Shown: positions 1-20,280 of the stretch, one piece after another
Layout of the letters: each line of letters starts with the position of its first letter
Position numbering within the stretch: the stretch's first letter is position 1
Position numbers and translations under genes: made by a program
Source of the DNA: a virus
Taxonomy: Duplodnaviria > Caudoviricetes
DNA: 24,978 nt
Strand: one strand, 5' to 3'
Virus record (IMG/VR): IMGVR_UViG_3300037420_002492
Location: 1-24,978 of that record
Notes under the pieces: model-generated
The model's input: the letters and a program-made list of their open reading frames with translations, nothing else
Told to the model about the DNA's origin: nothing
Databases searched by the model: none

Positions 1-1767
1 TTAAAGCAGTGAAAATAGGTAGGTGGACTCACGCCCTTCTCTACTAGAATCACTAGGTTTAGCTCTATTCTCTCTAGCAATAGCCTCCAGTAAGCTGACA
101 TTCATTCCACTGGCTGCATTAGGAACAAAGCTTCCACTAGTATTAGTCTTAAACTGACCCCCTATGCCTGGAATCTTACTAAGTAAGTCAGTAAACCAGT
201 TTTTAATGGAGTCGAAGGTGTTAGAAGCTGCTGAAGTGATGTCATTCCACTTCGAACCAAGGAAGTTAGTCAGTTCACTAAACTTAGAGCCTATGAAACC
301 AGTGAACTCTCCTAGCTTGCCTGAGATGTAGCTAACGACTGAATTCCACACATTCATTGACTCTCTAATGTAAATGTCTGAGAGATTTTTGAGTGTGCTT
401 CCAATCAGATAGGCAAGGCCAATGAGTGCCCCGTCCACTACAGTCAACAGAACTTCTACAACTTTAAGGTAGTCGATCGTCTTGATATAACTGACTAAGC
501 CCTCAATAATTCCTCTGATGACATTATTGATTGTGCCTCCTAAAGCTAACCAGTTGATAGATTTGAAAAGGGAGAGTGCCCCTTCTAAGATTTGGTTAGT
601 TAATTTAGCTGAATTTTCACCTAGTCCTTTGGAGAAAGGAATAAAGTTGATTTTGCTTAATTGACTTAGGTAATTAGAAAAGGAATCTTGGAAATAAGTG
701 ACTATCCCTTTTCTCAGTTTGAAGTAATCAATCTTCTCATCTTTGGATTTAGGAGGAAGAAAGGTTTGATTAATGTCTTTTACAAAGTCCCTTAGAGATT
801 TAATGGTGCTATTGAATTTGAGAATTCCATTTCTGAGAGCCAGCATAGGGTCAAAAGTGAGCCCTAATGATTCAAGTGTTTTGGATAATTCAGTTAATAG
901 CCCATCATCCCCAATTAATAGGGAGAGAGATTCGTTGATGGCAGTCAGTACGGTCTGATTCCCTTTAGTTTTGGAATCCAAATCCCGCATCAATCCGAAT
1001 AAACCATTCGTTGGGTCGAATAGGTTCGATTTGAGAGATTCAATCAGTCCACTCACCGATCCTGAAGCAGCTTTAATAACTTCTGGAGTAACAAGCTGTT
1101 CACTAACTGCTTTCAGGATTTCTTTCCTCTCTTTAAGAGTTAGCTGCTCTAGCTTCTTTCCAGTACCCTCTAGTCTTTTCTCGACTAGGGCTAGGAATCC
1201 AGTATTGTTTTCAGCAAATAGTAAATTCTTTAATTCGGAGAGAGAGGCACCTCCTAGGAACTTGCCAGCGAACTTAGAAACATCCTTGGCAGCAGTTTGG
1301 CTAGAGGCTCCCAGAACCTCCATCCCTTTGGTGATCGTGATTAGTTCTTCCTCAAACCCTTTGGAATCAAAAGCTCCTGAAGCATCCTTAAAGGCCGGAA
1401 TGAGATTGTCTTGGATTCCTAAAGCTAAGGTTTTGTAGTCTTGGGTAGCTCCTGGTAGAGCTGCTGCCACTTCACCTAGTCTGGAGTTGAGACGATCGAT
1501 AAACTCCTCTCCATCGGAAAAGCTTTTACCCGTCAAGGCTGCAAATGTTCCGGCTGCTGAAGCATTATTCAACTGGAGTTCTGCAGCTTCTCCAAGACTC
1601 TTGGTGAGACTGCTTACAGCAGAGGTAGCAGCTCCGATCGCTGAAGTAATACCACTAGCCATTAGGTTTGCAGCTAAAGCATTTCCTCTAATGGATTCTC
1701 CTAGCTTTTTGAAAACAGGTGAGAAGGAATCCTGAGCAACGATCTCTGTAAAGATCTTATTAGTCAT
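1..1767 (-). CDS. Tail tape measure protein (588 aa, possibly C-terminally truncated)
   Basis: Follows tube and chaperone. Ala/Ser/Leu-rich helical sequence with ~11-residue W/F periodicity near the C-terminus (VWNSVVSYISGKLGEFTGFIGSKFSELTNFLGSKWNDI). SD AAGGAGG upstream. Confidence 0.8.
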   Translation of the reverse strand: MTNKIFTEIVAQDSFSPVFKKLGESIRGNALAANLMASGITSAIGAATSAVSSLTKSLGEAAELQLNNASAAGTFAALTGKSFSDGEEFIDRLNSRLGEVAAALPGATQDYKTLALGIQDNLIPAFKDASGAFDSKGFEEELITITKGMEVLGASSQTAAKDVSKFAGKFLGGASLSELKNLLFAENNTGFLALVEKRLEGTGKKLEQLTLKERKEILKAVSEQLVTPEVIKAASGSVSGLIESLKSNLFDPTNGLFGLMRDLDSKTKGNQTVLTAINESLSLLIGDDGLLTELSKTLESLGLTFDPMLALRNGILKFNSTIKSLRDFVKDINQTFLPPKSKDEKIDYFKLRKGIVTYFQDSFSNYLSQLSKINFIPFSKGLGENSAKLTNQILEGALSLFKSINWLALGGTINNVIRGIIEGLVSYIKTIDYLKVVEVLLTVVDGALIGLAYLIGSTLKNLSDIYIRESMNVWNSVVSYISGKLGEFTGFIGSKFSELTNFLGSKWNDITSAASNTFDSIKNWFTDLLSKIPGIGGQFKTNTSGSFVPNAASGMNVSLLEAIARENRAKPSDSSREGRESTYLFSLL

Positions 1768-1799
1768 GAAAGCCCTCCTTAGTGAGGGAGGGGTTGAAT

Positions 1800-2087
1800 C
1801 TAGTATTCATTGATTAATTCTTCGTATTCAATTTCCCCTAACTCAACTAGTGAAGGGTCAGTAGAGGTGGTTTGTTTATTCGTTTTCTTTTGTACAGAGA
1901 TGAATCTCTCCAGATGGAAAAGAGCTTCACTTATTTCAAGCTCTAATAACTGGAAGTAGGCCGGAGTGATAAAGCCTTCAGTCGAACAAAGAAATGATTC
2001 ACAAAGATCGGTAGCCGTGAAGACTCTATCCTGAACACTAAACAGGATTTTGTTTGTCTTGCAATTTACGAACAGCTCGAAAGCAAG
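1800..2087 (-). CDS. Start-less 95-codon frame; probable frameshift extension (lambda T-like part) of the tail assembly chaperone
   Basis: Open from 2087 to TAG at 1802-1800 in the +1 frame relative to 2038..2463. Contains no ATG/GTG/TTG and fills the gap before the tape measure gene. Confidence 0.65.
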   Translation of the reverse strand, partial: LAFELFVNCKTNKILFSVQDRVFTATDLCESFLCSTEGFITPAYFQLLELEISEALFHLERFISVQKKTNKQTTSTDPSLVELGEIEYEELINEY

Positions 2088-2463
2088 TTAGGGCAGAACC
2101 CACCCTCTCAATATCTTCAACCTCTAAAGTGTCTAGAAAATCCTCAAAGCTAGGAACAGTGCTCAATTTAGAGTTAAGGGGAATGTAACTCACCATGCAG
2201 GTATGAGCTAGCTTGATAGAACTGAATACATCCGATCGGTACTCTTCAGGAGCACTCTGATACCAGCTTTGGATCTGTAGAAACTGTTTGCCTTTAGGAG
2301 ACTTCAACTCAATTTGAGTGCCGTCATAAAGCTGAAAAGTAACTCTGTTTTCTAGCTCATCAAATTGAAGATTCACCGGATAACCTTCTGGGTTTGATTC
2401 CGGTTCAGTAGCTTCAGGGATCGGAGCCTGCTGCTGTTGGGGCTTATTTACTTTTAAGGGCAT
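2038..2463 (-). CDS. Tail assembly chaperone (lambda G-like, 141 aa)
   Basis: Small acidic protein between tube and tape measure, overlapped by a downstream start-less frame. Confidence 0.7.
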   Translation of the reverse strand: MPLKVNKPQQQQAPIPEATEPESNPEGYPVNLQFDELENRVTFQLYDGTQIELKSPKGKQFLQIQSWYQSAPEEYRSDVFSSIKLAHTCMVSYIPLNSKLSTVPSFEDFLDTLEVEDIERVGSALTCFRAVRKLQDKQNPV

Positions 2464-2509
2464 TTTATTTAACTGTTTACCTGATTGATATGGAGAGGAG
2501 GATTAAAAA

Positions 2510-2992
2510 TTAGAGATTAGAAGTGCTAGTGATGCTATTTGAATTTCCAGCAATGGAAACTTGATCAACACTAAAAACCATTTTGAGTTCGACGACCGAA
2601 TCACCGGAGCCAGTATCCATTGACTCAAAAACAGACCACTCAGAAACTCGACAGCCTGAGAGACTCCAAGCTGATTTACCTCGGAATTCCATCTGACCAC
2701 ATCGTTTCACCGGTCGGACGGTCATACTGAATGGCTCACCACATTCATGAGATTGCAGAAAGTCCAGAACTGGACCATCTCGATCGGGGTCATAAGCTTT
2801 GCTGAGGGTAACTTGCTCGATTTCTTGTGCTCCACTGGGAGCGCTCTTCTTGATATTGCTCAAGCCATCAGAGTACATGGCTCGATTGAATTTCTTTTTG
2901 ATGCCTGAGAATTTCGACCAATAACAGCTCAGCTCGTCCACCAGAAACAAGGCATCGGCATTGGTCATCGGAGTGGAGTTATCCAACTTCAT
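2510..2992 (-). CDS. Tail tube protein (160 aa)
   Basis: Directly downstream of the sheath. Size and beta-strand pattern (VTLSKAYD ... WSLSGCRVSEW ... VVELKMVFSVD) fit T4 gp19-like tubes. Confidence 0.75.
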   Translation of the reverse strand: MKLDNSTPMTNADALFLVDELSCYWSKFSGIKKKFNRAMYSDGLSNIKKSAPSGAQEIEQVTLSKAYDPDRDGPVLDFLQSHECGEPFSMTVRPVKRCGQMEFRGKSAWSLSGCRVSEWSVFESMDTGSGDSVVELKMVFSVDQVSIAGNSNSITSTSNL

Positions 2993-3058: not shown

Positions 3059-4516
3059 TTAGGCAGCTAAACCAGCTTGAGCCGATTCTTGTACCTGTCC
3101 GATCGGTACTTTAATGGTATTGATCAGAATTCTTTCTACACCTGGGCTGGTAGCTGCATAAACTTCCACCAGGACATTACCAAGCTGGAGATCGGCTGGA
3201 TCATTGTTAGTGAAGGAGCAAACAACTACGAAGGCATCCTGCTCAGTCTCTCCAAATAAGGCTTTATCCAGCCACAATCTTCGTAGAACTGCTCTAGCAG
3301 TACTCTCAATTCGAGTTAGAAGGACAGCCTGACCATCAATACTGGTAAACAAATCATTGTCAAAGGCAGATCGGAGAGTGCCATTGATGACATTCATGAT
3401 CACTCGGCTGACCGTTTGAATGTAAAGGGTGTCCGTCGATCGGGTTCTCATACCCCAAACCACAATTCCCTTATTCCTCAACGATCGGATCACATTAATG
3501 CCCGCAGGATTCAGAACTTCCTGATCCTGATTTACGTATTTGACATTGACGGCCTTCACTCCCTGGACTGGGTATTTGGCTCCTGCCATTGGTTGCTGGA
3601 AACCTTGTTCCTTAAATCTCTTGGTAGCTACTCCAGCTACTGCTGCTGAAGCTGGAACTACTCCACCTTCCAGATCGGAGAGGTAGGGAGCATAGTAAGC
3701 TGAATGACCTTTGGGGCTTGCATAAGTGGCTGCTTCAGCTTGTAGTTGAGCCACTGTTTGGATAGCTGGACCACAATCTGCAAGGTGCATCCAGTCATAG
3801 CCTTCAGCAGATACTAGATTCTGACATGCACTGTAAACAGCTAGACGATCGGAGGCTGAAGTTAGAAGCTGATAGGCTTCAGGTGCAATCAGAAACCCTT
3901 GAGCATAATCATCATCTACATCAAAGCTGTGCTCGATCGAATAGACATAATCTACTGACGAGGGAGTGGTAGCAGCAACAGTAGTAACAGTCATTGCTCC
4001 GGCTGAAGCTGTAACTGTAAGGACTGCTGCAGGATCGTCAGCTACAATAATCAACTCATCAGAAGCACTTCCTGCAATGGCTGTAACAGCACTGGAGACT
4101 AGGTTAGAAGTGTTAATGGCATCAATTAACCCTGACACAATAGAGTCTTTAGTAGGGCTTGAGGGAGCTGTATAGGTAACAGCACTTCCATTAATGGTTA
4201 GGGTATAAGCTCCTGCTGTAGCCGTGTCGATGACCACTTTCTTTCTAGCTGCAATATTACTTCTGACAAAGTAAAGGAGCCCACTCCAATCATTTCTGAA
4301 GTAGAGTTTGACTGATGCCTCAGAAGGAGAGTTGCTGAACTGATTCGTGAAATCTTCTAACGATCGGACTAGGGTTGGGGTGTTGTATGCTCCACTTGAA
4401 GCACTCCCGATCATGTAAACAGTTTGAAAGCTGGCTAAGTCGGTGGGAGATGACCCTGCCGAAGTCTCTACCACCTTGACTCCTGGTCGTTTGAAGTTTG
4501 AGAAAAGAATAGACAT
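3059..4516 (-). CDS. Contractile tail sheath protein (485 aa)
   Basis: N-terminal RPGVKVVE; PTLVRSLEDF; PASAAVAGV; LNPAGINVIR..GIVVWGMRT; LWLDKALFG..AFVVVCSFTNN..LQLGNVLVEV, all typical of phage sheath families. Confidence 0.93.
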   Translation of the reverse strand: MSILFSNFKRPGVKVVETSAGSSPTDLASFQTVYMIGSASSGAYNTPTLVRSLEDFTNQFSNSPSEASVKLYFRNDWSGLLYFVRSNIAARKKVVIDTATAGAYTLTINGSAVTYTAPSSPTKDSIVSGLIDAINTSNLVSSAVTAIAGSASDELIIVADDPAAVLTVTASAGAMTVTTVAATTPSSVDYVYSIEHSFDVDDDYAQGFLIAPEAYQLLTSASDRLAVYSACQNLVSAEGYDWMHLADCGPAIQTVAQLQAEAATYASPKGHSAYYAPYLSDLEGGVVPASAAVAGVATKRFKEQGFQQPMAGAKYPVQGVKAVNVKYVNQDQEVLNPAGINVIRSLRNKGIVVWGMRTRSTDTLYIQTVSRVIMNVINGTLRSAFDNDLFTSIDGQAVLLTRIESTARAVLRRLWLDKALFGETEQDAFVVVCSFTNNDPADLQLGNVLVEVYAATSPGVERILINTIKVPIGQVQESAQAGLAA

Positions 4517-4548: not shown

Positions 4549-5184
4549 TTAGTTTGGATTGGTGAGGTGAATCTCTCTATCCAACTCATAATCGGAGGGG
4601 CTATTAAGATTGAAGTTAATCTTGGCTTTGTTAATCTTGAGTGCTAAGTCACTCACAACAAGAGGAGGGGCATCTGGATTAGGAACTGGGGGTTCAAAAT
4701 CTGGATTCAGTTCTAGTGAGGTGACATTGAACTCAAAGCTAAAGCTGAAGTTGCAATAGGCTAGCCAATCTCCCTGATCGCCCTCCTCACGAGAAATGAC
4801 CAAAGGATTATTGTTGGCTTCAAACTGAACGCTAGAGATTGAGCATCCAGGATTTTCGAGTAGAGCCTTTCCTTGAATGTATTGAACAAGGGACTCTAGT
4901 TCACTGAGGGGCAATTCATCTAGCGTAAGCTCATCCGAATACCTAAAGACGATCGAGTAAGGGAAGGTACCCGATCCTTTTATTGAATTAGAACCTGTCC
5001 GAAAGTAAAGTAGATTTTCTACTGGATATTCAATACCGGTATTAGCAGGAAGGAGATTAAGTTCGGTTGAGTGAATTGAATAGAGTTCTCTAGGAGGATC
5101 GGCATCCCAACTATCGATTCTGATTTGAGTTTGAAGCCAAGCCTTTACTTGAATCCTCACCTCTTTAATGTTGGAGTCAGCCAT
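4549..5184 (-). CDS. Putative tail terminator / neck protein (211 aa)
   Basis: Position between neck genes and sheath; stop/start overlap at 5184. Function inferred from synteny only. Confidence 0.5.
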   Translation of the reverse strand: MADSNIKEVRIQVKAWLQTQIRIDSWDADPPRELYSIHSTELNLLPANTGIEYPVENLLYFRTGSNSIKGSGTFPYSIVFRYSDELTLDELPLSELESLVQYIQGKALLENPGCSISSVQFEANNNPLVISREEGDQGDWLAYCNFSFSFEFNVTSLELNPDFEPPVPNPDAPPLVVSDLALKINKAKINFNLNSPSDYELDREIHLTNPN

Positions 5185-5621
5185 TAGTCCGTCTCCTTGG
5201 CAAGAATTAAAGAGAATACGATCGGATCAGAGTCCATCAAGTGAATAAGCTTGCAAGGAATTCCACCCTCAATAGATTTGGTGACTTGATTTGAGTAAAC
5301 AACGGCACCAGTTGAATCTAGAGGGGGGTCGATAATGAAACTGACTCTTGCCTTGGTAGGACTGATAAACGTGGAAAGGGGATAGACCCTGGGAATCTCT
5401 ACTTGATAGTAAGAAGCTTTGATAGTGACATTCCCTACAGGCAATCCAACTAATCTAGGGCTTACATTCGTGATGTGGCTTGAGATCAGGGTGTCTTCAG
5501 GAAGTTTACCTTGAAGCTGATTTCTAGCCAGTAGGAACCTACGTTGAGGAAGCCCTAAAACACTTTCCACTTTGTTGAGATTCACTTCAAGCTGGGCCAG
5601 CTTCTCGAATAATTTGGTCAT
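5184..5621 (-). CDS. Putative head-closure / neck protein (145 aa)
   Basis: Tightly packed in the head-tail joining block; function from synteny only. Confidence 0.45.
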   Translation of the reverse strand: MTKLFEKLAQLEVNLNKVESVLGLPQRRFLLARNQLQGKLPEDTLISSHITNVSPRLVGLPVGNVTIKASYYQVEIPRVYPLSTFISPTKARVSFIIDPPLDSTGAVVYSNQVTKSIEGGIPCKLIHLMDSDPIVFSLILAKETD

Positions 5622-5623
5622 TT

Positions 5624-5947
5624 CTAACTAAGGGCTTTTGGAATATTTCGATCGAGCTGTAGGTTGAGAAAGTCTTGGATTTGAGCTTCCGATCGGAACA
5701 TCATTCCCACTCTCCTCTCTACATAGGGGGCGTATTTAACCTGATTGAAGATACTGATCGAGTCAGTACCTTGCTTAGCAGATTCCCACCCCCTTCTCAA
5801 ATTGCCAGTTCTGACAGGAGTTCGATCTTGAATCAGTCCCTTGCCATACTGGGCTGTTTGATTGAGAGAATCATCTACTGCTTTTTTGAAATGAGAATTA
5901 GGATTTTGATGAAGGGGGCCGGTAGCTTTGAAGGTGACTTGAAGCAT
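5624..5947 (-). CDS. HK97 gp10-family neck protein (107 aa)
   Basis: Signature TPVRTGNLRRGW followed by NQVKYAPYVE. Confidence 0.85.
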   Translation of the reverse strand: MLQVTFKATGPLHQNPNSHFKKAVDDSLNQTAQYGKGLIQDRTPVRTGNLRRGWESAKQGTDSISIFNQVKYAPYVERRVGMMFRSEAQIQDFLNLQLDRNIPKALS

Positions 5948-6319
5948 TTACCAGTAACTCACATGACCTGAGGGTTGAGGGCAATATTTACTTCTAGCAA
6001 TGGGAATACCAGTCATCTGTGAGATCTCTTGAATGGCTCTATTCCCTTCAGATTTCAGTTGTGAGACATGAGCAAAATAGTTTAGTTTGGCACTTCTACT
6101 ACCTTGCACATAGCTAAGCTCTCTGGCTTCTTTGATTTGGGTGTCGATCGTAGCAATCTCATCTAAAAGGTTTAGAGCCTGCTCATAGACAGCTAAAGTG
6201 TATTCTTGCTGTAGAAAAGCATTCATTCTATTGAGATTTACTTCTGCAAACTGTTGAGTGGAACCCCCATACCCCAACACCATTAGAATTTTGTCAATGT
6301 CAAGTTGATTAAATTGCAT
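5948..6319 (-). CDS. Putative head-tail adaptor (123 aa)
   Basis: First gene after the capsid; small and helical; synteny. Confidence 0.5.
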   Translation of the reverse strand: MQFNQLDIDKILMVLGYGGSTQQFAEVNLNRMNAFLQQEYTLAVYEQALNLLDEIATIDTQIKEARELSYVQGSRSAKLNYFAHVSQLKSEGNRAIQEISQMTGIPIARSKYCPQPSGHVSYW

Positions 6320-6369: not shown

Positions 6370-7356
6370 TTAAGCTGTAACTCCAGTAATGACACCTACA
6401 GATCGTCTTTCCATTAATGCAAGTTGGAACATTCCATAGAGAGCAAATTTAACTTCTTGAGGGTTATCACTGGGCATCTCTTTTGCATAAATCAGCAAAC
6501 CTGCTTCAGGTCTATCTTGAGATCCACCTTCATTAGTCTGACGGAAGCTATAGAGTCTCAAGTCATTCTCATTCACAAAGTAAATGACTCCATCTGGAAC
6601 TGAGACATCTTCTACAATGGGACGACCTTCAAAAGTCAGTCCTCTTACCCCCAAATCTGCAGGACTGGTGTAATTAGCAGAAATAACAGTAGCTCCATCA
6701 AATGCTCCTGCATAAATCAAAGCAGTTGCAGGATTCATCACTAAAGCCGTGAAAGTAGCTGGAACTCCAGTCGTAGTGCCTTGTCTATAATCTGCAGAGA
6801 AAGCTCTCAATTTAGCTTTAGTCAGAGAACCAAAAGTTGTAGAAACTAGAGTAGTCCAAGCTGCATCCACAGCAGGATCTAAACCAGCATAAGCAACAGT
6901 AGACTTTTTAGCTGTTACTGCACTATGTAGAGAACCTAGACCTAGCACTCCACCATAGTTACTGCCAGTTCCTAGAAAGATACCAGCACCTAAAGTTTGT
7001 AGAATTTCTCTCTTAGCCCCTTCTGAAGAGAGATTAATCAGATTACCCAAAGGAGCTTCACCTTGAGAAGCCATTTCAGCAATCTGAACTTCATTGATTG
7101 AAAAGCTAGAACGCACTCTGTAAGTGCCAATAGGTAATTGAGCAGGCTTAATGGTATCTGCACTAGTAGAAGTAACATCTGCTGTTACTAATTCAGTACT
7201 AGCAGTAGCACCTGCTACATTGACGTTGTACTTTACTGCTGTCTGTGCAGTGCTATATCTAGAAATTCGACCTAGCATAGGGCAATTCAATTGGTCTAGT
7301 TCAGCCAATTTAGGCTCAATAGAAAGATTGATTGTTCCCGAAGTATAAATAGCCAT
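6370..7356 (-). CDS. Major capsid protein (HK97 fold expected, 328 aa)
   Basis: After scaffold. GIFLGTGS...GVLGL, LVMNP and LTFEGRPIVEDVSVPDGVIYFVN patterns typical of phage capsid proteins; strong codon bias. Confidence 0.85.
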   Translation of the reverse strand: MAIYTSGTINLSIEPKLAELDQLNCPMLGRISRYSTAQTAVKYNVNVAGATASTELVTADVTSTSADTIKPAQLPIGTYRVRSSFSINEVQIAEMASQGEAPLGNLINLSSEGAKREILQTLGAGIFLGTGSNYGGVLGLGSLHSAVTAKKSTVAYAGLDPAVDAAWTTLVSTTFGSLTKAKLRAFSADYRQGTTTGVPATFTALVMNPATALIYAGAFDGATVISANYTSPADLGVRGLTFEGRPIVEDVSVPDGVIYFVNENDLRLYSFRQTNEGGSQDRPEAGLLIYAKEMPSDNPQEVKFALYGMFQLALMERRSVGVITGVTA

Positions 7357-7389: not shown

Positions 7390-7995
7390 TTATTTGTTGA
7401 TAATTGCACCAGCAATTGCTGATCCAATTGAATTGTTATTAGAAACAGATTTGGTTGTAGCAGGAGCAGATTTACTTTCTGTAGATCCAGATCCATTCAC
7501 GTTTGAAGGAGGAAGGAACAGCTTCCCGTCTTCACTGGAGAGATAGCTATTCAAAAGATCGTCAAGAAACTGAGCTTGACCGTCTTCTGACTTGTAAATC
7601 CACCGATTGTTTTCCTGTTCAAGGGAAGCCTCATACTCCACCGAAAAGAGCTTTTGTAGGACATGCTTGTTAGTAGCTTTGGAGCCTGCTATTGCCTCAG
7701 AAATGGCAGCTTTTCTTTGAGCCTCTAAGGCTTTTTGCTCCTTCTGTTGCAACTGATTGTTTAAATCAGCAATCTGTTGATGAAGAACTTTGAGGGTCAG
7801 CTTACTCTCTTCTTTCTCAGGATCTTCCGATCGTTGAGCTTCAGGTTGACTGACTCTTTCCAGCTTCTTAGTCACATCCTTAGTAAGTGAAGCAGCAAAC
7901 TTGCCGTTCTCCTTACGGACTTCAGGAAGGAGCATTTCTTCAATCAGGCTTGGAAATACTTCCTTGAAAATTTCGATAATCTGTTCTTTGTCCAT
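7390..7995 (-). CDS. Capsid scaffold protein (probable start ATG at 7995, 201 aa)
   Basis: Between portal and capsid; Glu/Lys/Gln-rich coiled coil with a C-terminal NGSGS low-complexity tail. Confidence 0.7.
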   Translation of the reverse strand: MDKEQIIEIFKEVFPSLIEEMLLPEVRKENGKFAASLTKDVTKKLERVSQPEAQRSEDPEKEESKLTLKVLHQQIADLNNQLQQKEQKALEAQRKAAISEAIAGSKATNKHVLQKLFSVEYEASLEQENNRWIYKSEDGQAQFLDDLLNSYLSSEDGKLFLPPSNVNGSGSTESKSAPATTKSVSNNNSIGSAIAGAIINK

Positions 7996-8087
7996 GATCG
8001 TTTTCTTATGAAAATAAGTGTTTGCCGTTAAGACCCCTGGCAATAAGGGGTATCTGGTACTGTTAGCCTCACAGTTGGCTAGACATT

Positions 8088-8123: not shown

Positions 8124-9617
8124 TTAAGTACTCGACATCTGTTCAATCTCGGCTTCTAACTCAGCTTGAAGTTTGGGAGGAAGGTTCCCGATCATGAAGT
8201 CACTGAGCCTAGAATAAACAGACTTAAACAAGATCGGAGGTAAGTTAGCCCGGAGAGAATCAATATTAAGGTCGGACAACACCTGCACTTGGCTGATGAA
8301 GGTGTCAACATGATCGGATTGGAATCTGTTTAAGCCACTGACGGAGAGCTGAGGATTGACTCCTTGTGATCTAGCAACTAGCTGGTAGACATCTTCCAGG
8401 ACATCAACGAGGAAGGTTCCATAGCTCTTGAGGGTGTCTTCCTGCTCCTGAAAGTCAAAAGCCTTGGATAAGCCACTCTGCTCGACAGCACCTTTGGTGG
8501 AACCACTCACTCCACCTTGATTGATCAACGATCGGACTTGAGCCTCTAACTGCTCCAGGGATTTCTCCAGTTGAGGAAGAATCTTACCTTCAGCTTCCTT
8601 CCAATCAAAATCACCTCCTTGAAGTACATACTGCAATCCGGTCGGAGGTGGAGATCCATCAACGTAAGAGGAACTCAGATCGGAGTCAGGAGTGAGTTGA
8701 GGCTTCCAGGTTCGTTGAACGTAGAGGAAGGTTTCCAGATCATGCTTATGGCAGGAAACCCTCAGGTGGGCTAAAGCAATATTGACAACCTGATCACCTA
8801 CCCACAGATCAGCAGGAAGCTCAGCCAGAATCAGAGGTGTCGTTCCTAAGCTATGAGAGACTGGCTCAGACTCTAAGGGGATCTTAGTATCCTTGTTGAT
8901 CGGAACAAACTCACCTTTTGAATCCAGGATAGAAACAATCTGACCATCCCGACTAAACTCAAAGATGCCACTGTACTTGACGATCGATTGATTGTCGATG
9001 AAAGTCCAAGTGACCTTGTTCAGTGGAGGCTTAAGGGGGCTTTCCTGATACACAGAGACTTGCCTTAGCTTGACCCACTTAGGCTTATGAGGACCTTCCA
9101 ATTCCCAAGCAATCACCTGATCGGCAGGATAGAGATTGATGTAAGGTCTTAGTCCGAGTGCTTCTTCCTGAGCTTTGTTTGTCGGTCGGATCGGACTGAA
9201 GGGTTTTTCGACATGCAGCCAAACTCGTTTGAACTTCAGACACTCCGAAAGGATTTCAGCAACTAGTTCTTTCTCATCACGTTTTCCATAGAGGTCAGTT
9301 GCCGATCGGAATGTCTGCCAGAAGTCAGCATCTGATTCAGCAGTCATAACCTCTAGGCTTCCATTCTCCAGCTTAGAGACTTGGCTATTTAGGGTTGAAG
9401 CAAGGAGGTTGATATAGAGGAACTTACTGAGCCGGTGCTTGTAAATTTGAGGGTCTTCACTCGGCCGTTGAGGAAGGTACTCAGCTATTCGAGACTCAAG
9501 CTGGTGGCCTCCTTGGTACAAGTCATTGATTTTCGTGAAGGTAGGGAGTAGATCGTTGAACTCAGGTGAAGTGGTTTCTAGGGTGGAGAGTTCTAATTCA
9601 GTGGGATAAACGAACAT
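8124..9617 (-). CDS. Portal protein (497 aa)
   Basis: Immediately after terL. DLYQGG...YLPQRPSED..IYKHRL N-terminus and EQSGLSKAFD motif typical of portals. Confidence 0.85.
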   Translation of the reverse strand: MFVYPTELELSTLETTSPEFNDLLPTFTKINDLYQGGHQLESRIAEYLPQRPSEDPQIYKHRLSKFLYINLLASTLNSQVSKLENGSLEVMTAESDADFWQTFRSATDLYGKRDEKELVAEILSECLKFKRVWLHVEKPFSPIRPTNKAQEEALGLRPYINLYPADQVIAWELEGPHKPKWVKLRQVSVYQESPLKPPLNKVTWTFIDNQSIVKYSGIFEFSRDGQIVSILDSKGEFVPINKDTKIPLESEPVSHSLGTTPLILAELPADLWVGDQVVNIALAHLRVSCHKHDLETFLYVQRTWKPQLTPDSDLSSSYVDGSPPPTGLQYVLQGGDFDWKEAEGKILPQLEKSLEQLEAQVRSLINQGGVSGSTKGAVEQSGLSKAFDFQEQEDTLKSYGTFLVDVLEDVYQLVARSQGVNPQLSVSGLNRFQSDHVDTFISQVQVLSDLNIDSLRANLPPILFKSVYSRLSDFMIGNLPPKLQAELEAEIEQMSST

Positions 9618-11619: not shown

Positions 11620-12468
11620 CTAAATCACCTTGAGTAACAGATCGGAGAGTAGGGTTAAAGCCTCAATGAGGATGGTGGATTGGTAGCTATTAAGGTCGAC
11701 GTGGTGGCTCTGGTGGAAGTGTGAGTAGAAGCTGGCTTCAAGTTCTAGAGGGGCCGATGAAAACTGGTATCGAAGGACAACCTGCTGTTCTTGGCTTAGT
11801 TGACTGAGACAGTCTTGAAGGGTGGCTTCGTCAATCAAGCTCCAAAGGGAATTTACCGGATTTAGTTGAGATAGGGGTCGATAAATCCGATCGAGCAGGT
11901 GGTCACAATCGTTTAGGCTCCCGGCATAGAAGGCTACTAGGACGGCTTGAAGGTCTTCCAGGTTGATGTAGGAGGTAGAGGAGACAGAAGAAGCTGAGGT
12001 AGGAATAAAGGAGGATTCAGGGTCGACTTGAATGTACTGGTATTGCTGACCGTAGAGAAGCTGGTAGCCTGCTTCAAGACGATCGTTCAAGTAAGAGGAA
12101 TAGGTCAACAGCTCATCTAGAGGGTAGTCTCTACAGCATTCAGCACGAGTCAGTCGGTCTTCCTGGCTAGCTGTCATTAGGTTATTGTCGACCACCAAGG
12201 CTGCTATGTTTTGCTTGATCCACTCCTCGACCTCCGATCGTTCAGACTCAGTGAGGGTGAGGAGGATTTCCTTTCTTAGGACGTGGAGCAGGCAGCCCTC
12301 TTGACCTCGTAGGTTAGCTAGGAAGCAGGGACCGAATTCACGACTCATTCGATAGTGGAGAGTTGAAGGGGTTACTCCCAATTCTTTAGCTAAAGATCGT
12401 AAGGAAAGGTCAGGATTAGTAGCAAGACGATCGTAAGCTGTTTGAATATGAGAACGATTAAGTTTCAT
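11620..12468 (-). CDS. HTH DNA-binding protein with a degenerate sigma-70 region 4-like C-terminus (282 aa); candidate late regulator
   Basis: N-terminal HTH LSLRSLAKELGVTPSTLHYRM; C-terminal LQDCLSQLSQEQQVVLRYQF; lies directly upstream of the morphogenesis operon. Confidence 0.55.
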   Translation of the reverse strand: MKLNRSHIQTAYDRLATNPDLSLRSLAKELGVTPSTLHYRMSREFGPCFLANLRGQEGCLLHVLRKEILLTLTESERSEVEEWIKQNIAALVVDNNLMTASQEDRLTRAECCRDYPLDELLTYSSYLNDRLEAGYQLLYGQQYQYIQVDPESSFIPTSASSVSSTSYINLEDLQAVLVAFYAGSLNDCDHLLDRIYRPLSQLNPVNSLWSLIDEATLQDCLSQLSQEQQVVLRYQFSSAPLELEASFYSHFHQSHHVDLNSYQSTILIEALTLLSDLLLKVI

Positions 12469-12603: not shown

Positions 12604-13347
12604 ATGTTTGGAAAGGGAGAAACAATGAGGTTAGTTAAAACAAATTCCTATAAGAAAATGGCAAGCTCTAAAAACAGTTTTCATAATTGCAGATACCCTT
12701 ATACATACTTCAGTTCGAAATTCGGTTTTAAAGAACCTTTTTACTGTTCTAACAATATGAATATCTATCCCTACGAGGTTATGGATGAAGCCCTCCGATC
12801 GTATATTCAGGAATATCGTCACGATTGGGAAATACTTTGGAGTCTAGTCATCTTTTCCCAATCCGATCAGCAGGTAGCAACGACAATCAATCAGGATAGA
12901 AAATACGTGAGAAGACGATTAGCAAAGTTTACTCACTTCATTAATAAATTTATTGCAGGTAAAGAGATCGGTACCTTTCAAAAGGGCTGGACTTTTTATA
13001 AAGAAATCACTAGGCAAGCAGTATTTAACAGGTTTGAGAACCGATCGATCGATTTGGATTCAATTAAGCTTAAAAAGGTTGATGGTGTGAAAAGAATTTA
13101 CTTCAAAACACTAAGTCAATTACTGGTCACCGATTACGGATTGATCAGAACGTGGATTCAAAGGGATTTAGATCTTAGTCAGGTGCATACCGAGTTTAAG
13201 ACGATCATGATAAGAAGAAAGCCAGTAGAAATGCCCTACTACTCCCTGACTTACGATCAAGCTGTCTTGATTGCTAAGAAACATGAGTATCCTGAAATTG
13301 TAAATGCAGCAATTACTGAGCTAAACTACATTTTTAGTAAGAATTAA
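12604..13347 (+). CDS. Putative regulator: HTH plus Rha/AntA-like C-terminal region (start uncertain)
   Basis: SDQQVATTINQDRKYVRRRL is HTH-like; EMPYYSLTYDQAVLIA resembles Rha/antirepressor C-terminal motifs. Confidence 0.45.
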   Translation: MFGKGETMRLVKTNSYKKMASSKNSFHNCRYPYTYFSSKFGFKEPFYCSNNMNIYPYEVMDEALRSYIQEYRHDWEILWSLVIFSQSDQQVATTINQDRKYVRRRLAKFTHFINKFIAGKEIGTFQKGWTFYKEITRQAVFNRFENRSIDLDSIKLKKVDGVKRIYFKTLSQLLVTDYGLIRTWIQRDLDLSQVHTEFKTIMIRRKPVEMPYYSLTYDQAVLIAKKHEYPEIVNAAITELNYIFSKN

Positions 13348-13349: not shown

Positions 13350-13637
13350 ATGACTGACTTGAAATTAATGAAAACCCTGAGAGGTCGGGCCGATTTTCTG
13401 ATGAATTGCAGCTGGAAAACAGAAAAGCAGTACCTCGATTGGGTGTATGAACTATACAGAACAGGAATTGCTTTCGATTACCTGGAGGGCCCTGATACTC
13501 ATGCACTTAAACTCGATCGTTGGATCGATAAATTCACAAAAGTAGCTCAGGAAAATAATCAATCAATCGAATTAACCCTGGCTAGAATCCAAAAAGTACA
13601 ATCCGATTGGAAAAGGGTCAGGTTGAGGAAGGATTAA
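13350..13637 (+). CDS. Hypothetical phage protein (95 aa)
   Basis: Starts directly after the upstream stop; same strand; plausible composition. Confidence 0.6.
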   Translation: MTDLKLMKTLRGRADFLMNCSWKTEKQYLDWVYELYRTGIAFDYLEGPDTHALKLDRWIDKFTKVAQENNQSIELTLARIQKVQSDWKRVRLRKD

Positions 13638-14477: not shown

Positions 14478-14684
14478 ATGACTATGACTAACGAAGTTAT
14501 TCCTACCGATCTGATCTCGACTAAAAAAGCTGCTGAAATGTTTGGATTTAAAGACGGTTCTGCTGTTCGATACTACGTCACTACTAATCGAATCAAGGGC
14601 TACAAGAACAGAAAAGGGTTTATGTTCATTTCCGAATCTGAATTTAGAGATGTGCTACGTCCCGACTTCCAATCGGTCAATTAA
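14478..14684 (+). CDS. Excisionase-like (HTH_17/MerR-type winged helix) DNA-binding protein (68 aa)
   Basis: LISTKKAAEMFG...SAVRYYVTTNRIKGYK....MFISESE fits the Xis/HTH_17 pattern. Confidence 0.7.
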   Translation: MTMTNEVIPTDLISTKKAAEMFGFKDGSAVRYYVTTNRIKGYKNRKGFMFISESEFRDVLRPDFQSVN

Positions 14685-14847: not shown

Positions 14848-14849
14848 CT

Positions 14850-17636
14850 ATGATTTTAGCACAGAATTCTGCTCAAGAAACGGTCAAAGTTCAAGCTGCA
14901 TCTACCTCTCAAGTTACAGATGCTAATACTGAACTAAAAGAGAAGATTTACCTGGCGATCGATGCTGAATGGGACCCTTCAAAGAACCTTGATCTCTGCT
15001 GTACGATGAGCCTTCAAGGTGGTCCTAAAGCCGTGTTTTTGAACAGCTACATTCAAGATCATGTCTCTCCTGAAGTCTTTGATCGTATTCGAGCTATTGC
15101 TTCTCAGTGGGCTCAACAACGGGGTGTGAATCTGTATTGGCTTCCGTTCGACGATCGGATGGATTTGATCAACTACTTTCTTTCTGACATCAGCCTCGAT
15201 GTCAAGAATGTGAATCTGAGAATGTTCTACTCACCTAGAGATCTGACCATTGGATTTGGTTTTGATCAAGTGAAAGACTATTACAAACGGAACTGTTCCA
15301 GAACCGGTATTCAGCAACGTCGTAATGTCTCTGCTTATGCCCTTCCGATCGGTGACTATAAGTTTACTATCATGGATCTGAAAGGTTTGCAGCCGATCGG
15401 AGGTCTAAAGGATTTGGCTAAATCTGTCGGATATGAAATGCAATCCAAATCGGACATGGATGAGTACAAGAGCAACATGCTTGAAGGTTTAATTCAAGAA
15501 ACTGAGAAGTTTTTGGATTATGCTTTAGCTGATGCTGAAGACTTGCATATCATCCACGATCTTTTCAACATGTATGTTCGGGATAAGGTGTGTAAGGACA
15601 TCCTCGGTGTTGAATTTGTTGATGATATTCCAATGACGACCGGTTCTTTGGAGGCTAGAGTTTTCCAGCAGTGGCTTCATAACCTTGCTGGCAATAAAAA
15701 TGCTTTTGAATTTGCCATTCGAAAGCTTGGTCTATTAAATACCGGTTCTAAAACTGCTAAGAAGGATCGGATCAAGTTCAACGAGGTGATTGATAGCATT
15801 ACTTCTGTTGTTGACTTGGATGCTAATCCTGAAGCTTCTCTTGACCTGAGCCGTATTGATTTTCAATCGAACGGATATTCTCAGGCTTCTGTACTGTCTC
15901 TAGCTCGACACTCTACGACTGCTGCCTTCAATGCCCTTGTTCACGGTGGAAGATGTAATAACGAAAATCCTTTTGCCTTTTCAATCGACTGTGCTGGAGC
16001 CGATATCGACCTTCAGGGCTGTTATGGAAACTCTCTAGCTAAGTTTACCTATCCAATCGGATTACCTACCTTGTGGGGTTTTACTGAGAATCAGAAACGT
16101 CTTACCCTCAAGCAATGGTTAGACAAGAATGAATCCGATCTTCATCTTGGTTTGTGGCAAGTCGTTGTCTCAGGAGAGCTTCCTTTCTCACAGGACTTGA
16201 TTTATTCCAAATTGGTCTCCCTCAATCAGATTCACAAAGTTGCTTTTGGTGGATGGGAAAAGGAGGAGAACCATGTTGGAAGTAGTGAAATCCGGGACCA
16301 CGATCTGCAACATATTCCTGGTGAGTTTGCTTTGATCCGTAATGAGCTTGAAAACGGCATTATTACCAGTGATTTACTGCAAGCCATCCGACAAGTTTCT
16401 ACCGATCGTGAGTTGAATGCTTGGATGAAGCTTGAAGTCGTTTGTGCTGCAGGTTATAAGCTCAGTGATCAGGTTGAAACTATCGACGAATGGAGTGCTG
16501 CCGTCATTTCTGATAAGGGTCAGTACGAAACGGTGAAGGGTAATGCAGCCCTTATCAAAGACGAAAGAACCAGAAAGTGGGTTGGAATTCCGATTGGAGA
16601 TTTTATTGGTCCGTTAGTCAGTAAACGATTGGGTATTAAGCAGTTGGCTAAATCCAATAAGGATCTGAAGTCTCTGGATTTGATGCTTAAATTGTTCATC
16701 AACACCTTGTATGGTTGTCTGGCTTCAATTTACTTCCCGATCGGCAATGCTATTGTTGCTAATAACATCACAGGTCGTGCTCGATTGGGAGCTTGGATGA
16801 TTAATAAAGCTCTTTGGACTAGACAATCGATCACGGATGGTGGGATTTACCAGCTTTCTGAGGTTCCTTTTCTCACTAACTCCGATCGTTTACCTGGCTT
16901 TGATGTTTTATCCGACTGTAGTAGATGGATTGATCACCGTAGAAAGAATAGAACGATCGGAAGCTTAGGAAATATCGACTGGAATTCCCGTGTCTTCAAA
17001 GGAATGACCGAAGCCCTGAAGGATCTTTCCGAGGAAATTGATGGGATAGCCCTTCAGCATATCAACCAGTTTTGGGGTAGCTACGATCTTCAGCTTCCTT
17101 TCAACGTTGAGCATAAAGAGGAGCACTTCTTCACCCGTGCTGCTTACTGGTCAAAAGCTCACTATGCTTTGGATTTGGTTCAGCCTTGCCTTAATAAGTA
17201 CACGGGTGAATTTACCGATCGTCACTTCATCATTCGAGGAGTCAAGACCTACAAAGAAGACTCCGGGCTTAAGATGAGTCCCGTGTTTGACTTGCTATCC
17301 AACATTCTTGAGGGTGCTGACGGATTTCCGATCGACCTGGAATACGATCACTTTTACCTGATGAGGGTTGGGAAGTATGCCCAGCTTCAGAGTAGCTCCA
17401 GTGAATCTGAGCTTAAGAGTAAGCGGCCTGGTGATGAAGTCATTGAAGAGAGAATTCAACGATTCAACAACACCCACCTTCCGATTGCTTCGATTGCTGA
17501 GTTTCGAAGCCGAACTGATCGGAAGACCTTCAGAACTTCTAAGGGAGAGAAGGTGAGGATTCCATTCTTTGAAAAGTTCGGTCCGAAAGGAATTTCCTAC
17601 GTTCACAGGATGATGTTGGACGATCGACTCAAGTAA
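14850..17636 (+). CDS. Family B DNA polymerase with 3'-5' exonuclease, piPolB-like (probable start ATG at 14850, 928 aa)
   Basis: ExoI YLAIDAEW; ExoII-like FYSPRD; ExoIII YALAD; HGGR; motif A DIDLQGCYG; motif B KLFINTLYG; motif C SITDGG; KAHY. Confidence 0.85.
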   Translation: MILAQNSAQETVKVQAASTSQVTDANTELKEKIYLAIDAEWDPSKNLDLCCTMSLQGGPKAVFLNSYIQDHVSPEVFDRIRAIASQWAQQRGVNLYWLPFDDRMDLINYFLSDISLDVKNVNLRMFYSPRDLTIGFGFDQVKDYYKRNCSRTGIQQRRNVSAYALPIGDYKFTIMDLKGLQPIGGLKDLAKSVGYEMQSKSDMDEYKSNMLEGLIQETEKFLDYALADAEDLHIIHDLFNMYVRDKVCKDILGVEFVDDIPMTTGSLEARVFQQWLHNLAGNKNAFEFAIRKLGLLNTGSKTAKKDRIKFNEVIDSITSVVDLDANPEASLDLSRIDFQSNGYSQASVLSLARHSTTAAFNALVHGGRCNNENPFAFSIDCAGADIDLQGCYGNSLAKFTYPIGLPTLWGFTENQKRLTLKQWLDKNESDLHLGLWQVVVSGELPFSQDLIYSKLVSLNQIHKVAFGGWEKEENHVGSSEIRDHDLQHIPGEFALIRNELENGIITSDLLQAIRQVSTDRELNAWMKLEVVCAAGYKLSDQVETIDEWSAAVISDKGQYETVKGNAALIKDERTRKWVGIPIGDFIGPLVSKRLGIKQLAKSNKDLKSLDLMLKLFINTLYGCLASIYFPIGNAIVANNITGRARLGAWMINKALWTRQSITDGGIYQLSEVPFLTNSDRLPGFDVLSDCSRWIDHRRKNRTIGSLGNIDWNSRVFKGMTEALKDLSEEIDGIALQHINQFWGSYDLQLPFNVEHKEEHFFTRAAYWSKAHYALDLVQPCLNKYTGEFTDRHFIIRGVKTYKEDSGLKMSPVFDLLSNILEGADGFPIDLEYDHFYLMRVGKYAQLQSSSSESELKSKRPGDEVIEERIQRFNNTHLPIASIAEFRSRTDRKTFRTSKGEKVRIPFFEKFGPKGISYVHRMMLDDRLK

Positions 17637-17722
17637 TCCAATCGAAGGGGCTTTCTAACCCCTCCGATCGATTCTGTTGATCAATGCTATTTTGAAATCC
17701 AGTAAAGCATTATGGTTTTGGC

Positions 17723-17756
17723 GGGGGTCATGATCGGTAATCATGACCCCCTTTTT
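17723..17756 (+). terminator. Intrinsic terminator downstream of polB
   Basis: Perfect 12-bp stem GGGGGTCATGAT-CGGTA-ATCATGACCCCC followed by TTTTT. Confidence 0.85.
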
Positions 17757-17887
17757 CATTTACCGGTAACTTGGCTCACCTGTCCGACCGTCCTTAACAA
17801 GCAACATTGGTTAAATACCGGTAACTTGGGCGATCGAGCCAGCCGACCTTAATCCGACCGATAAGTAAATACTGGTATTTACTAGTG

Positions 17888-18008
17888 AGGTAGCTTAAAT
17901 TCTCTTGTCAATGTGTAATTTATTTTTGTGGGTGGAACATTAAGCACGTCCAAATAGTTAGGTAGAGTAGGTTGGGGTTTTTGGCTATGTTCCCCAGCCT
18001 ATTTTTTT
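17888..18008 (+). repeat. Copy 1 of a diverged ~120-bp direct repeat ending in a terminator (sRNA-like)
   Basis: Aligns with 18338-18456; ends TAGGTTGGGG...CCCCAGCCTA-T7. Confidence 0.75.
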
Positions 18009-18337
18009 GTTGGAGTTTTGGGTGCTACAGGGAAAACTATCAAGGTGCCTTAAAACTGCCTAACCCTCATAAAATAGGCAGCACCATCAGCACGATCGAT
18101 TAGCCTGCCCCGATCAGGGCCTTAATAGGTCACCAGTAATTTACCGGTAAATCAGCTTTGACGAGTCTTTTACACGACCCGTCAATCGTTTAGCTGAGTA
18201 GCTTGATTTGACCAGAGCTAGAGCATTTCCCCCGGAGGGGGCCAATCACCTCAGTAACCCATTCCGGTAGAACGATCAGCCAGCCCTTCAGCAATCTAGC
18301 TTACGAATAAGTGATAGATAGTCGAGATTAATCAGCA

Positions 18338-18456
18338 AGGTAGCTTGAATCCTCTTTCCATTGTCTAATCCTGCTAGAACAGTGGAACGTTAAGCAAATC
18401 CAATTAGTTAGTCAGCGAATAGGTTGGAGTTTTGACTTTTCCCCAACCTATTTTTT
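18338..18456 (+). repeat. Copy 2 of the ~120-bp direct repeat (450 bp downstream)
   Basis: Shared blocks AGGTAGCTTRAATYCTCTT, GTGGAACRTTAAGCA..TCCAAWTAGTTAG and TAGGTTGGRG...CCCCARCCTA-T6. Confidence 0.75.
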
Positions 18457-18635
18457 CTGCAAGAACCTTGACTCGTAATGTGTTTCAGCCGTCTACTTGC
18501 CAGCTAGCCAATCGGTTCTACTCTTTCTGCTTTTTGAGTACAATTACTTACCTTAAATTTGATCTAGAAGGTGCCTGTTTTTGAGTCAAGGTATGATTCA
18601 TCCTTCAAAAAGGAGCCTTGATTAACCGATCGGAC

Positions 18636-18878
18636 TCATAAAGCACCCAACCTCACCCACATCTCTTTTTCTTCAGCTAGGTCTAAACATTCCTCATGAG
18701 TTAATTCGACCGTCACTGTCATTTGACCTTGGCTAGTATGGTTTGTGAACATCCGAATGTGACCCCCGATCGATGAGTGTGCCCCCGGAGGTTGCTCTAG
18801 CAAGTTTTTCATCACTTGCTCTAGAAAAGCACCTGCAATAGTAAAGTGCTTGCCAGTCGTTTCTATCGTTACCTTCAC
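18636..18878 (-). CDS. Hypothetical protein (80 aa) downstream of the integrase
   Basis: GTG start 14 bp after the int stop with AAGGAG upstream; probably co-transcribed with int. Confidence 0.6.
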   Translation of the reverse strand: MKVTIETTGKHFTIAGAFLEQVMKNLLEQPPGAHSSIGGHIRMFTNHTSQGQMTVTVELTHEECLDLAEEKEMWVRLGAL

Positions 18879-18892
18879 GATCGGGCTCCTTT

Positions 18893-20071
18893 TTAATCCA
18901 CAGGTTTGATTGATTTCAGCTTCAGGACATCGGCATAGACCCGCTCGATCATTTCAACACTGCTATCAACCCACTTAGCTAGGACAAAAGCCGAAACACC
19001 TTTCAGCAATTGCAAGGTGATGAAGGTATCCCTAGTGTTGTAAAGAGTCGTGCCAGGTTTGATCGGATCGACTAACCGAACCCAGGCTGTCTTGGCAAAA
19101 TTAGACCGATTAATGGGACCACCTCTCTTACCTGGAAAGATCAGTAAGCCTGGATTGACTGAGGCAGGCTTAATACTAACTAAAAGAGCTTGAAGCTTGG
19201 GAGAACACGGAAAGACACGAGTTCTGTTGTTTTTGGAGCCTGCCGTTTGTATCCACCTGTTATGCGAATAGATCAGTGAACCGTTGAACTCGATTTCATC
19301 ACAATCGGGCGATACATTCCCCCACTTCAAACCAATAACCTCCGAAGTACGAGCACCAGTCAGAAAGAGGGTTTTGACAAGGGGAGTGTAGTAGCTATAA
19401 CGGTGTCCCGTGTGGATTTTTCCGTTCCAGTTACCCCGGTGTTGTTCAAAAGCCTGGATTACCGATTGCATCTCCTCTTCACTAAAGGCATTCGGCTTGG
19501 GACTGAGTTGATAGTTAAAGGCTGGCAGCTCGGCAGCCATACCAGCATAAGGACTGAGATGGGTATCCACGATCAGTTTGTGTTTAATAGCCCACTTCAC
19601 GGCTGCATTAAGCTCAATCAGAATCCTTTTAGTTTGATGATTCGTAGTGATGGATTGGAGCTGCTCTCTCACCACAAGGGCATCTAAGCAATCTAAATGA
19701 CCGATCTTGGCAATCTGACGACCGTACCACTCAATGAGGATTTGAGAGGTTTCCTTACGACTTACTTGCTTGTATTTCTGGTATCGTTCCCAAAGTTCTC
19801 CCAACGTAAGGGGTTTGTGGATCACGATCGGAGTTTCTACCTTGCTAACTTTGTACTTCTGCAAGGTGGAATCAAAACATCCATTCAGGTAATCCAGTTC
19901 CACTTGTTTGGAAATCTGTTCTGCCAAAATCCAGTTTTCACGAGCGTCACTCAATCCTAGAGTGAAACGTTTCTGCTCTCCACCAAACCATTCACGGGGA
20001 AGAGTCAGTCTTAATCTGCCGGAATTCGACTGCACATTAACTCTACCCTTAACCCTCTTTGATACCTTCAT
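18893..20071 (-). CDS. int: Tyrosine recombinase / phage integrase with cyanobacterial arm-binding N-terminus (392 aa)
   Basis: GRLRLTLP...KRFTLGLSD arm domain; LFLTGARTSE (Arg I), SKN (Lys), YNTR (Arg II), MIERVY (Tyr); adjacent to a tRNA. Confidence 0.93.
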   Translation of the reverse strand: MKVSKRVKGRVNVQSNSGRLRLTLPREWFGGEQKRFTLGLSDARENWILAEQISKQVELDYLNGCFDSTLQKYKVSKVETPIVIHKPLTLGELWERYQKYKQVSRKETSQILIEWYGRQIAKIGHLDCLDALVVREQLQSITTNHQTKRILIELNAAVKWAIKHKLIVDTHLSPYAGMAAELPAFNYQLSPKPNAFSEEEMQSVIQAFEQHRGNWNGKIHTGHRYSYYTPLVKTLFLTGARTSEVIGLKWGNVSPDCDEIEFNGSLIYSHNRWIQTAGSKNNRTRVFPCSPKLQALLVSIKPASVNPGLLIFPGKRGGPINRSNFAKTAWVRLVDPIKPGTTLYNTRDTFITLQLLKGVSAFVLAKWVDSSVEMIERVYADVLKLKSIKPVD

Positions 20072-20209
20072 CGATTTAGCTTGAGTCCGATTGGAATACC
20101 ATAACCGGACTCAAACTTTCATTTTTGGGGTAAATGGAATCGAATAGAGTCGATCGGACGAGTATGAGAGATCGTCTGAAAGCCTTATGTCAGAAGGATT
20201 GTGTGAATA

Positions 20210-20280
20210 AGCGGGCAGCGAGAATCGAACTCGCATCAATAGCTTGGAAGGCTATGGTTTTACCACTAAACTATGCCCGC
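20210..20280 (-). tRNA. tRNA-Gly (anticodon TCC); probable prophage att target
   Basis: Reverse complement GCGGGCA TA GTTTAGTGGTAAAAC C ATAGC-CTTCCAA-GCTAT TGAT GCGAG-TTCGATT-CTCGC TGCCCGC T forms a full cloverleaf; CCA not encoded. Confidence 0.97.

Follow-up and report, generated by a model that had tools for sequence, protein, structure and literature searches.

A tailed prophage with a PolB_SITDG family B DNA polymerase as its only recognisable replication gene

A prophage at tRNA-Gly and its gene content

The window analysed here is the entire virus record IMGVR_UViG_3300037420_002492, 24,978 bases in length. It carries a prophage integrated at a tRNA-Gly gene, and the left portion of this prophage falls outside the record. 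We focus on its family B DNA polymerase (PolB), a protein of 928 amino acids (aa). An earlier description, the sequence-only reading, had proposed one element that joins a myovirus head-tail operon to two regulators, an excisionase-like gene (xis), the PolB and an integrase at tRNA-Gly, and we found every one of these genes in its place. The host is probably a cyanobacterium, judging from the named homologues of the PolB and the portal protein.

The late genes lie on the minus strand. From the left they encode a C-terminally truncated tape measure protein (1..1767; PHROG 58, 7e-13), a putative tail assembly chaperone (2038..2463), the tail tube (2510..2992; phrog_35249, 1e-9), the contractile tail sheath (3059..4516; phrog_17610, 7e-50; phrog_23, 2e-30), four proteins of the neck or connector region (4549..6319; 211, 145, 107 and 123 aa), the major capsid protein (6370..7356; phrog_9953, 2e-13), a scaffold (7390..8043; PF06810, phrog_206), the portal (8124..9617; phrog_145, 4e-32), the large terminase subunit TerL (9620..10915; phrog_2, 2.5e-31), the small subunit TerS (10875..11357; phrog_1482, 2e-8) and, at the head of the operon, a helix-turn-helix (HTH) regulator (11620..12468; HTH_24, 3e-5). 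The chaperone label is suggested by the position of the gene between tube and tape measure; the protein is 35-48% identical to those of sister prophages. The 107-aa neck-region open reading frame (ORF) is an HK97-gp10/Neck1 protein, and the order of all four neck-region genes is kept in sister prophages. Full-length homologues of the regulator occur in two prophages described below, G299 (31%) and G423 (38%). With the integrase, the terminase, portal, capsid, sheath and tube genes make up the set of a temperate phage of myovirus morphotype.

The early genes lie on the plus strand. The second putative regulator, of 247 aa (12604..13347), has a 27% homologue in G423 and no Pfam or PHROG match, and its sigma-r4-like and Rha/AntA-like leads fell below the Atlas bar. 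It is followed by a 95-aa ORF (13350..13637) with neither a Pfam or PHROG family nor a homologue in the compared loci. The excisionase-like HTH protein (14478..14684; HTH_17, 0.003) is 49% identical to an ORF of locus L031 that matches PHROG excisionases, and 43% identical to its counterpart in G299. A short inverted-repeat motif lies 5' of xis at 14158-14208 and is also present in G423 (79%) and L135. The polymerase gene (14850..17636) sits in a frame open from 14841-17636; the collection version of the protein has 928 aa.

Behind polB is a non-coding stretch (17637..18635) that contains hairpins and, as D1 and D7, two imperfect direct-repeat pairs; we consider this stretch a candidate origin. 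Predicted folding of 17640-18000 has a z of -3.3, and a 45-nt match to this stretch (84%) lies 3' of polB in G299. On the minus strand follow an 80-aa ORF (18636..18878) without a Pfam or PHROG family, the tyrosine integrase (18893..20071; phrog_1, 9e-33; PF00589) and tRNA-Gly(TCC) (20210..20280), the integration target, whose 3' part forms a probable 59-bp att core (20208..20266). Host-type genes of higher GC come next (0.37-0.47 left of the tRNA versus 0.50-0.52 in the flanking two-component gene).

The sequence-only reading had recognised no primase, helicase, single-stranded DNA-binding protein (SSB), clamp or O/P-type initiator between terS and int. Consistent with this, these families gave zero matches among the 22 window ORFs compared with Pfam and the 21 compared with PHROGs. 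PolB is the sole gene of the window prophage recognisable by sequence as serving replication or DNA copying.

The polymerase and its relation to piPolB

Among 8,000 scored candidates we found 81 homologues of the window PolB, and a search with the PolB profile matched 1,536 clusters (50% identity), 761 of them at E 1e-30. A phmmer search of the Protein Data Bank (PDB) gave 0 matches. Kazlauskas et al. (2020; PMC7544198) delineated a cluster of cyanobacterial and algal enzymes, 'PolB_SITDG', that stands apart from protein-primed PolBs (pPolBs) and primer-independent PolBs (piPolBs) and is distantly tied to RNA-primed PolBs. Their Table S2 holds 10 such sequences, and the passages covered give the name, these sequences and their hosts, with no function or genomic context. 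The window PolB is 40% identical to P0011 and 42% to P0014 at 96-100% coverage, these two having been paired with Table S2 rows through their organism and their length, not letter for letter. By this kinship and the shared SITDG motif C, the window PolB belongs to the PolB_SITDG group. This is a named but uncharacterised polymerase, to which we add plasmid, integrative-element and prophage contexts; the literature searched, where coverage of subscription papers was poor, yielded no account of PolB_SITDG from a plasmid or a phage. With these settings an orphan polymerase group gains a biological role.

Motif C reads S660-I-T-D-G, with Ile replacing the first motif C Asp. In 63 divergent members, Ile is found in 57 and T, D and G in all 63. 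The exonuclease residues D38 and E40 are kept in 59/63, D131, the weakest, in 50/63, and Y224 and D228 in 62/63, while the polymerase residues D387, K614, N618, G622 and D663 are invariant or nearly so. Proofreading and catalytic residues are thus retained, and both activities are predicted.

These residues bear on whether PolB might be an accessory passenger, a repair or inactive enzyme, in a phage that replicates through an unrecognised initiator. The replaced motif C aspartate fits such a passenger, and the 247-, 95- and 80-aa ORFs without an assigned family leave room for an initiator. However, piPolBs, which lack the same aspartate, are active (PMC5695915), and the exonuclease and polymerase residues are near-invariant across 63 divergent sequences. 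PolB is also the sole large gene of small circles and, in sister phages, does not occur together with other large replication-like genes (both below). We regard a passenger as most improbable.

We compared the group with 18 piPolB rows drawn from pLME300, staphylococcal plasmids and homologues, with 5 pPolBs and with 7 RNA-primed PolBs; the defining features of piPolB were taken from PMC5695915. Profile alignment (hhalign) of PolB_SITDG to piPolB gave a probability of 99.3 and E 2.5e-20 over 499 columns, versus E 2e-6 for pPolB and 9e-7 for RNA-primed PolB; the control, piPolB against pPolB, gave E 2.4e-11. With the SITDG profile, 16/18 piPolBs (26-61 bits) outscored the best RNA-primed (19.5) and the best protein-primed (8.9) enzyme. 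In the reverse search the window PolB scored 21.5 bits with the piPolB profile, 8.8 with the RNA-primed and 1.8 with the pPolB profile. By profile, then, no other PolB group compared comes as near to the window PolB as piPolB does. Both also replace the first motif C Asp, keep intact 3'-5' exonuclease motifs and have the stretches YKxxM...P..F..YA..D and PxTxGS in common. An Atlas model of weak quality (pLDDT 0.61) found its best named structural neighbour in a proteobacterial PF03175 cluster (TM 0.52), with PF00136 rows at 0.36-0.45. In the comparison for TPR1, the insertion between motifs A and B measures 210-276 aa versus 127-192 and is poorly aligned.

Several observations weigh on the other side. 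Across the group, the reverse search matched 33, 32 and 5 of 63 members with the piPolB, RNA-primed and pPolB profiles, respectively. The three profiles are of unequal depth, and the characterised E. coli piPolB is absent from its set. NCBIfam and PDB matches are archaeal PolB and Pol alpha. The spacing from the motif B Gly to the motif C Asp is 41-46 aa in 63/63 members, versus 63-68 in piPolB, 67-88 in pPolB and 46-56 in RNA-primed PolBs. This spacing indicates that TPR2, the subdomain on which phi29-type strand displacement depends, is absent from PolB_SITDG, and the alignment to piPolBs has an 18-column gap at the TPR2 site. The piPolB motif KH-X8-KTRG is absent, with E-H-K...KAHY...IRG in its place; the full motif occurs in only 2/18 rows of the piPolB set, so this is a loose test. 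Motif C reads ITDG in the window PolB versus SxTTDG in piPolB. Finally, the clustering (CLANS) in PMC7544198 links PolB_SITDG to the RNA-primed PolBs (PolBmain), not to pPolB plus piPolB.

E754 and K756 are kept in 62/63 members and align with the ExK strand of piPolB, in which the lysine takes part in priming (PMC5695915). The piPolB-like polymerase of the sequence-only reading therefore stands in part: piPolB is the nearest PolB group by profile, but the enzyme falls in the separately classified PolB_SITDG group, without TPR2 and KH-X8-KTRG, and we dropped membership in piPolB on these grounds. We suggest that the window PolB is piPolB-like in working while not a piPolB by definition. A protein-primed enzyme was rejected too. 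No terminal protein was recognised, TPR2 is absent and the pPolB profile match is weak. The window resembles phi29, PRD1 and Bam35 in being a small phage with one PolB; unlike them, it integrates and is terminase-packaged.

The same features frame the main rival explanation, in which PolB is the replicase but depends on a primer, its 3' end coming from host DnaG, an RNA polymerase transcript or a hairpin nick. ColE1, where Pol I extends a supplied 3' end, offers a likeness for host priming. The RNA-primed-like motif B-C region, the link to PolBmain and the hairpins beside polB fit this explanation, as do eight loci that pair PolB with a protelomerase-family gene (below), where hairpin ends could prime. 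Against it, the similarity from exonuclease through motif C is stronger to piPolB, and no clamp, primase or Rep family was found on the scanned small circles and prophages. We consider a primer-dependent replicase unlikely, although it deserves more weight than any other rival.

Linkage to virion genes and an exchangeable slot

An alignment-based portal search returned 18 IMG/VR records and 4 of 401 genomes of the phylum; a single-sequence portal scan of viral contigs gave no matches. A further search added G423 as a PolB-bearing prophage. G299 (contig C23) and G423 share the layout of the window, with terS and the regulator transcribed to one side and xis and polB to the other; G299 has a full myovirus tail and G423 a lambda-like tail. 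G001, a 38.4-kb provirus, carries an integrase, a PolB (41%) and myovirus head-tail genes in rearranged order. The scanned ORFs of these three prophages, from which a few ORFs below 100 aa and the window-matched ORFs were excluded, held no primase or helicase family. The sequence-only reading had asked whether PolB homologues are ever tied to virion genes. They are: three further prophages with related head genes carry PolB, and the linkage is real. Against our best reading (below), PolB was found in only 2 of 21 portal relatives (G001, G299), the records being 8-89% complete. The nearest TerL matches in cultured phages are Mic1, Lbo402-yong5 and Nostoc N1/A-1(L) (29-35%), but tblastn of the window PolB found no match in 50,697 phage records.

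Some further features of these relatives were recorded. In G001 (loci L027 and L030) the tail operon lies in two parts, with an inversion, on either side of the int-polB region, and HNH genes occupy the junction. The TerL of G423 (L160:1204-3477) has 757 aa with an internal insertion, a candidate intein-like element, and the same locus has three HNH genes in the interval from terS to the regulator.

The window had been proposed to be a pipolin-type element. A recombinase and a direct repeat at a tRNA agree with this, as does the lack of a recognised primase; pipolins likewise have a tyrosine integrase at a tRNA or occur alone on circles. Pipolins, however, encode nothing specific to viruses (PMC5695915), and the window has a full set of head genes as well as contractile-tail genes. 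In PMC11551731 only prophages adjacent to pipolins are reported, and its supplements might list cyanobacterial elements; the string 'cyanobacteri' has 0 occurrences in the main texts of both papers. Tailed temperate phages with a piPolB-related plasmid enzyme as the only recognisable replication gene are not reported in these pipolin papers.

A single pipolin-phage hybrid lineage, a possibility raised by the sequence-only reading, does not agree with the comparisons that follow. The window and G423 are 79% identical in TerL and 26% in PolB; with G299 the values are 62% (71% for capsid) and 29%, and with G001 they are 39% and 41%. On a FastTree (a quick method) of 38 PolBs, from which piPolBs were left out, the PolBs of the four phages are spread over three positions and require 3 changes, forced by well-supported branches. 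The PolB of G001 nests among Nostoc integrative and circular forms, and the TerL tree groups three of the four PolB-bearing phages together.

Most sister phages have another gene in this position. In ten sister prophages a gene of 484-912 aa with PolA-like motifs, forming two groups, takes the place of PolB (L031:8422-9918, L125:2667-4247, L132:2980-5718 and 7 more), and in L031 it lies directly behind the 49% xis homologue. The PolA label is unconfirmed, with no Pfam or PDB match and, across the motif C region, an hhalign probability of 4.7% with E. coli Pol I. The passages of PMC10201439 covered hold no subfamily matching this gene; PMC10061031 describes truncated PolA primases on other mobile elements, which is a lead only. 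Possibly these genes encode an undescribed primase or polymerase. Given the three tree places and the alternative genes, we rejected a single hybrid lineage; by these comparisons and the PolB/TerL mismatch, PolB is a swappable module in an exchangeable slot behind xis. Two other genes of the sister prophages were noted: a UL9-like helicase (PF02399) in L119, and a cobalamin adenosyltransferase-family gene in the early regions of L119 (4156-4812) and L125 (4983-5633).

Contig, graph and depth data come from one public sequencing run that holds the stretch (run X1, 60% read). This run may be the source of the window record, so it is not independent evidence. The part of it that was read gave no cover of 16451-20207 or of positions past 20266, an absence that carries no weight. 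The 59 bases 20208-20266 form their own piece at depth 84 versus 41-44 alongside, and another contig with different sequence joins at 20208. Doubled depth and an extra contig are the pattern of a two-copy att core with its second copy outside the window. Inside the window the longest other match to the tRNA 3' end is 10 nt, and thus polB and the structural genes are not parted by an att repeat, a possibility that the sequence-only reading had raised.

We also weighed whether a separate PolB-integrase island adjoins, in tandem, the remnant of an unrelated prophage, or whether the join is an assembly chimera. One contig covers 18-14245 at depth 41, and the xis-polB region is in short pieces; because the graph branches at 14248 and no listed contig joins 14245 to polB, run X1 alone fails to bridge terS to polB. 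This is a point against a single element. Islands of int and polB without virion genes exist (L001, L003, L004), polB and phage lie on separate contigs in G002, and tandem pipolin-prophage insertions have been reported (PMC11551731). A tandem or chimera would not, however, account for the recurrence of regulator, xis and polB beside terS in G299 and G423, nor for the xis homologue 5' of the alternative gene in L031. With no att copy inside the window and depth near 41 on both sides, we consider it very unlikely. At the 14248 branch, a 255-nt alternative path starts like the sequence near 17870, and the depth climbs over xis and the start of polB, which suggests a second related module in the sample.

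Small circles and a proposed mode of replication

We examined 112 loci of the PolB family. In 22 of them end repeats of 82-127 nt were read as marking circles, several of which may stem from related samples. All 25 small circles (the 22 contigs and 3 PLSDB plasmids; 4.0-10.2 kb) encode a full-length homologue of 911-1037 aa, which in 20 of them is the only ORF to reach 200 aa. Plasmid pSTA7437.05 carries PolB, TnpB, one 98-aa gene and nothing else. Ten of 72,556 plasmids match, all cyanobacterial, and a full-length PolB profile finds the family in 8/401 genomes. A conserved ORF of 90-117 aa on 12/25 circles (L022:3476-3754 and 11 others) speaks against PolB acting alone, as it could be an initiator; it had no PHROG match in the 3 scanned and could encode a copy-number or initiation factor.

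The family occurs in other settings as well. A tyrosine integrase flanks polB without a recognisable virion module in L001, L003, L004, L010, L038, L069 and L096. In 8 loci the flanking gene is of the protelomerase family (4 by Pfam PF16684, 4 by a shared PHROG): L011, L012 and L054, which also have terL, and L013, L044, L046, L053 and L079. These are likely hairpin-ended plasmids and phage-plasmids. L011, L012 and L054 thereby resemble N15-like linear phage-plasmids; N15 replicates with the RepA primase-helicase, and the window differs in integrating by a tyrosine integrase. At L007:7964-15482, from Planctomycetota, an integrase, xis, PolB_SITDG and a lone major capsid gene lie with tRNA-Val in what appears to be a satellite-like element.

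PolB is the sole recognisable copying gene here and the sole large gene on many tiny circles, and so likely copies the viral genome nearly alone. The best reading of the comparisons is that temperate phages have repeatedly captured a stand-alone plasmid replicase. We think it rather probable that the tailed prophage is replicated by a PolB_SITDG acquired from a small plasmid or an integrative element; the enzyme would copy the excised circle and probably prime itself. Self-priming taken singly, which would follow from the priming ability of the closest characterised kin and from the lack of a primase or Rep alongside the gene, has about an even chance.

The steps could be as follows. Excision would take place at the 59-bp att core, a repeat seen in one run, through the action of integrase and the Xis-like protein. 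PolB may start in the non-coding stretch 17637-18635 behind its own gene, making its own primer as piPolBs do. Without TPR2, unwinding would fall to host helicase and SSB or to the long motif A-B insertion of PolB. The terminase, portal and sheath genes would serve to package the DNA into a myovirus particle.

Particle formation may be blocked in this copy by its truncated tape measure. The gene had been taken as merely cut by the window edge; it is truncated, with 588 aa versus 635-717 in 6/6 relatives (47-129 aa shorter) and an alignment that diverges near residue 574. Bases 1-47 belong to a 1,299-bp contig of depth 147 versus 41, and are probably the end of an insertion sequence of about 1.3 kb. 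Such an insertion could leave this prophage copy defective. Baseplate and fibre genes were found in the relatives G001 and G299, and the window record stops within the truncated gene.

More broadly, and tentatively, at somewhat less than an even chance, PolB_SITDG may be a second large lineage of self-priming PolBs, sister to piPolB and without TPR2. It would be the sole replication enzyme of a cyanobacterial mobilome, extending to Planctomycetota and algae, of 4-kb circles, integrative elements, hairpin-ended plasmids, phage-plasmids, a capsid-only satellite and myo- and siphoviruses, the last reached through at least three captures. An enzyme with the priming-strand lysine but no TPR2 bears on whether phi29-type strand displacement is younger than self-priming or has a separate origin, and on where piPolB belongs between the RNA-primed and the protein-primed enzymes. 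The 4-kb circles could serve as a minimal replicon for tests and perhaps as a source of new vectors for cyanobacteria, and a self-priming, proofreading enzyme, if confirmed as such, would be useful for DNA amplification.

Members also occur in eukaryotes. P0052 and Table S2 of PMC7544198 include algae and a liverwort (Mesostigma, 38% identity; Carteria, Mallomonas, Neotessella and a Marchantia fragment), and our guess is that these sequences come from organellar plasmids.

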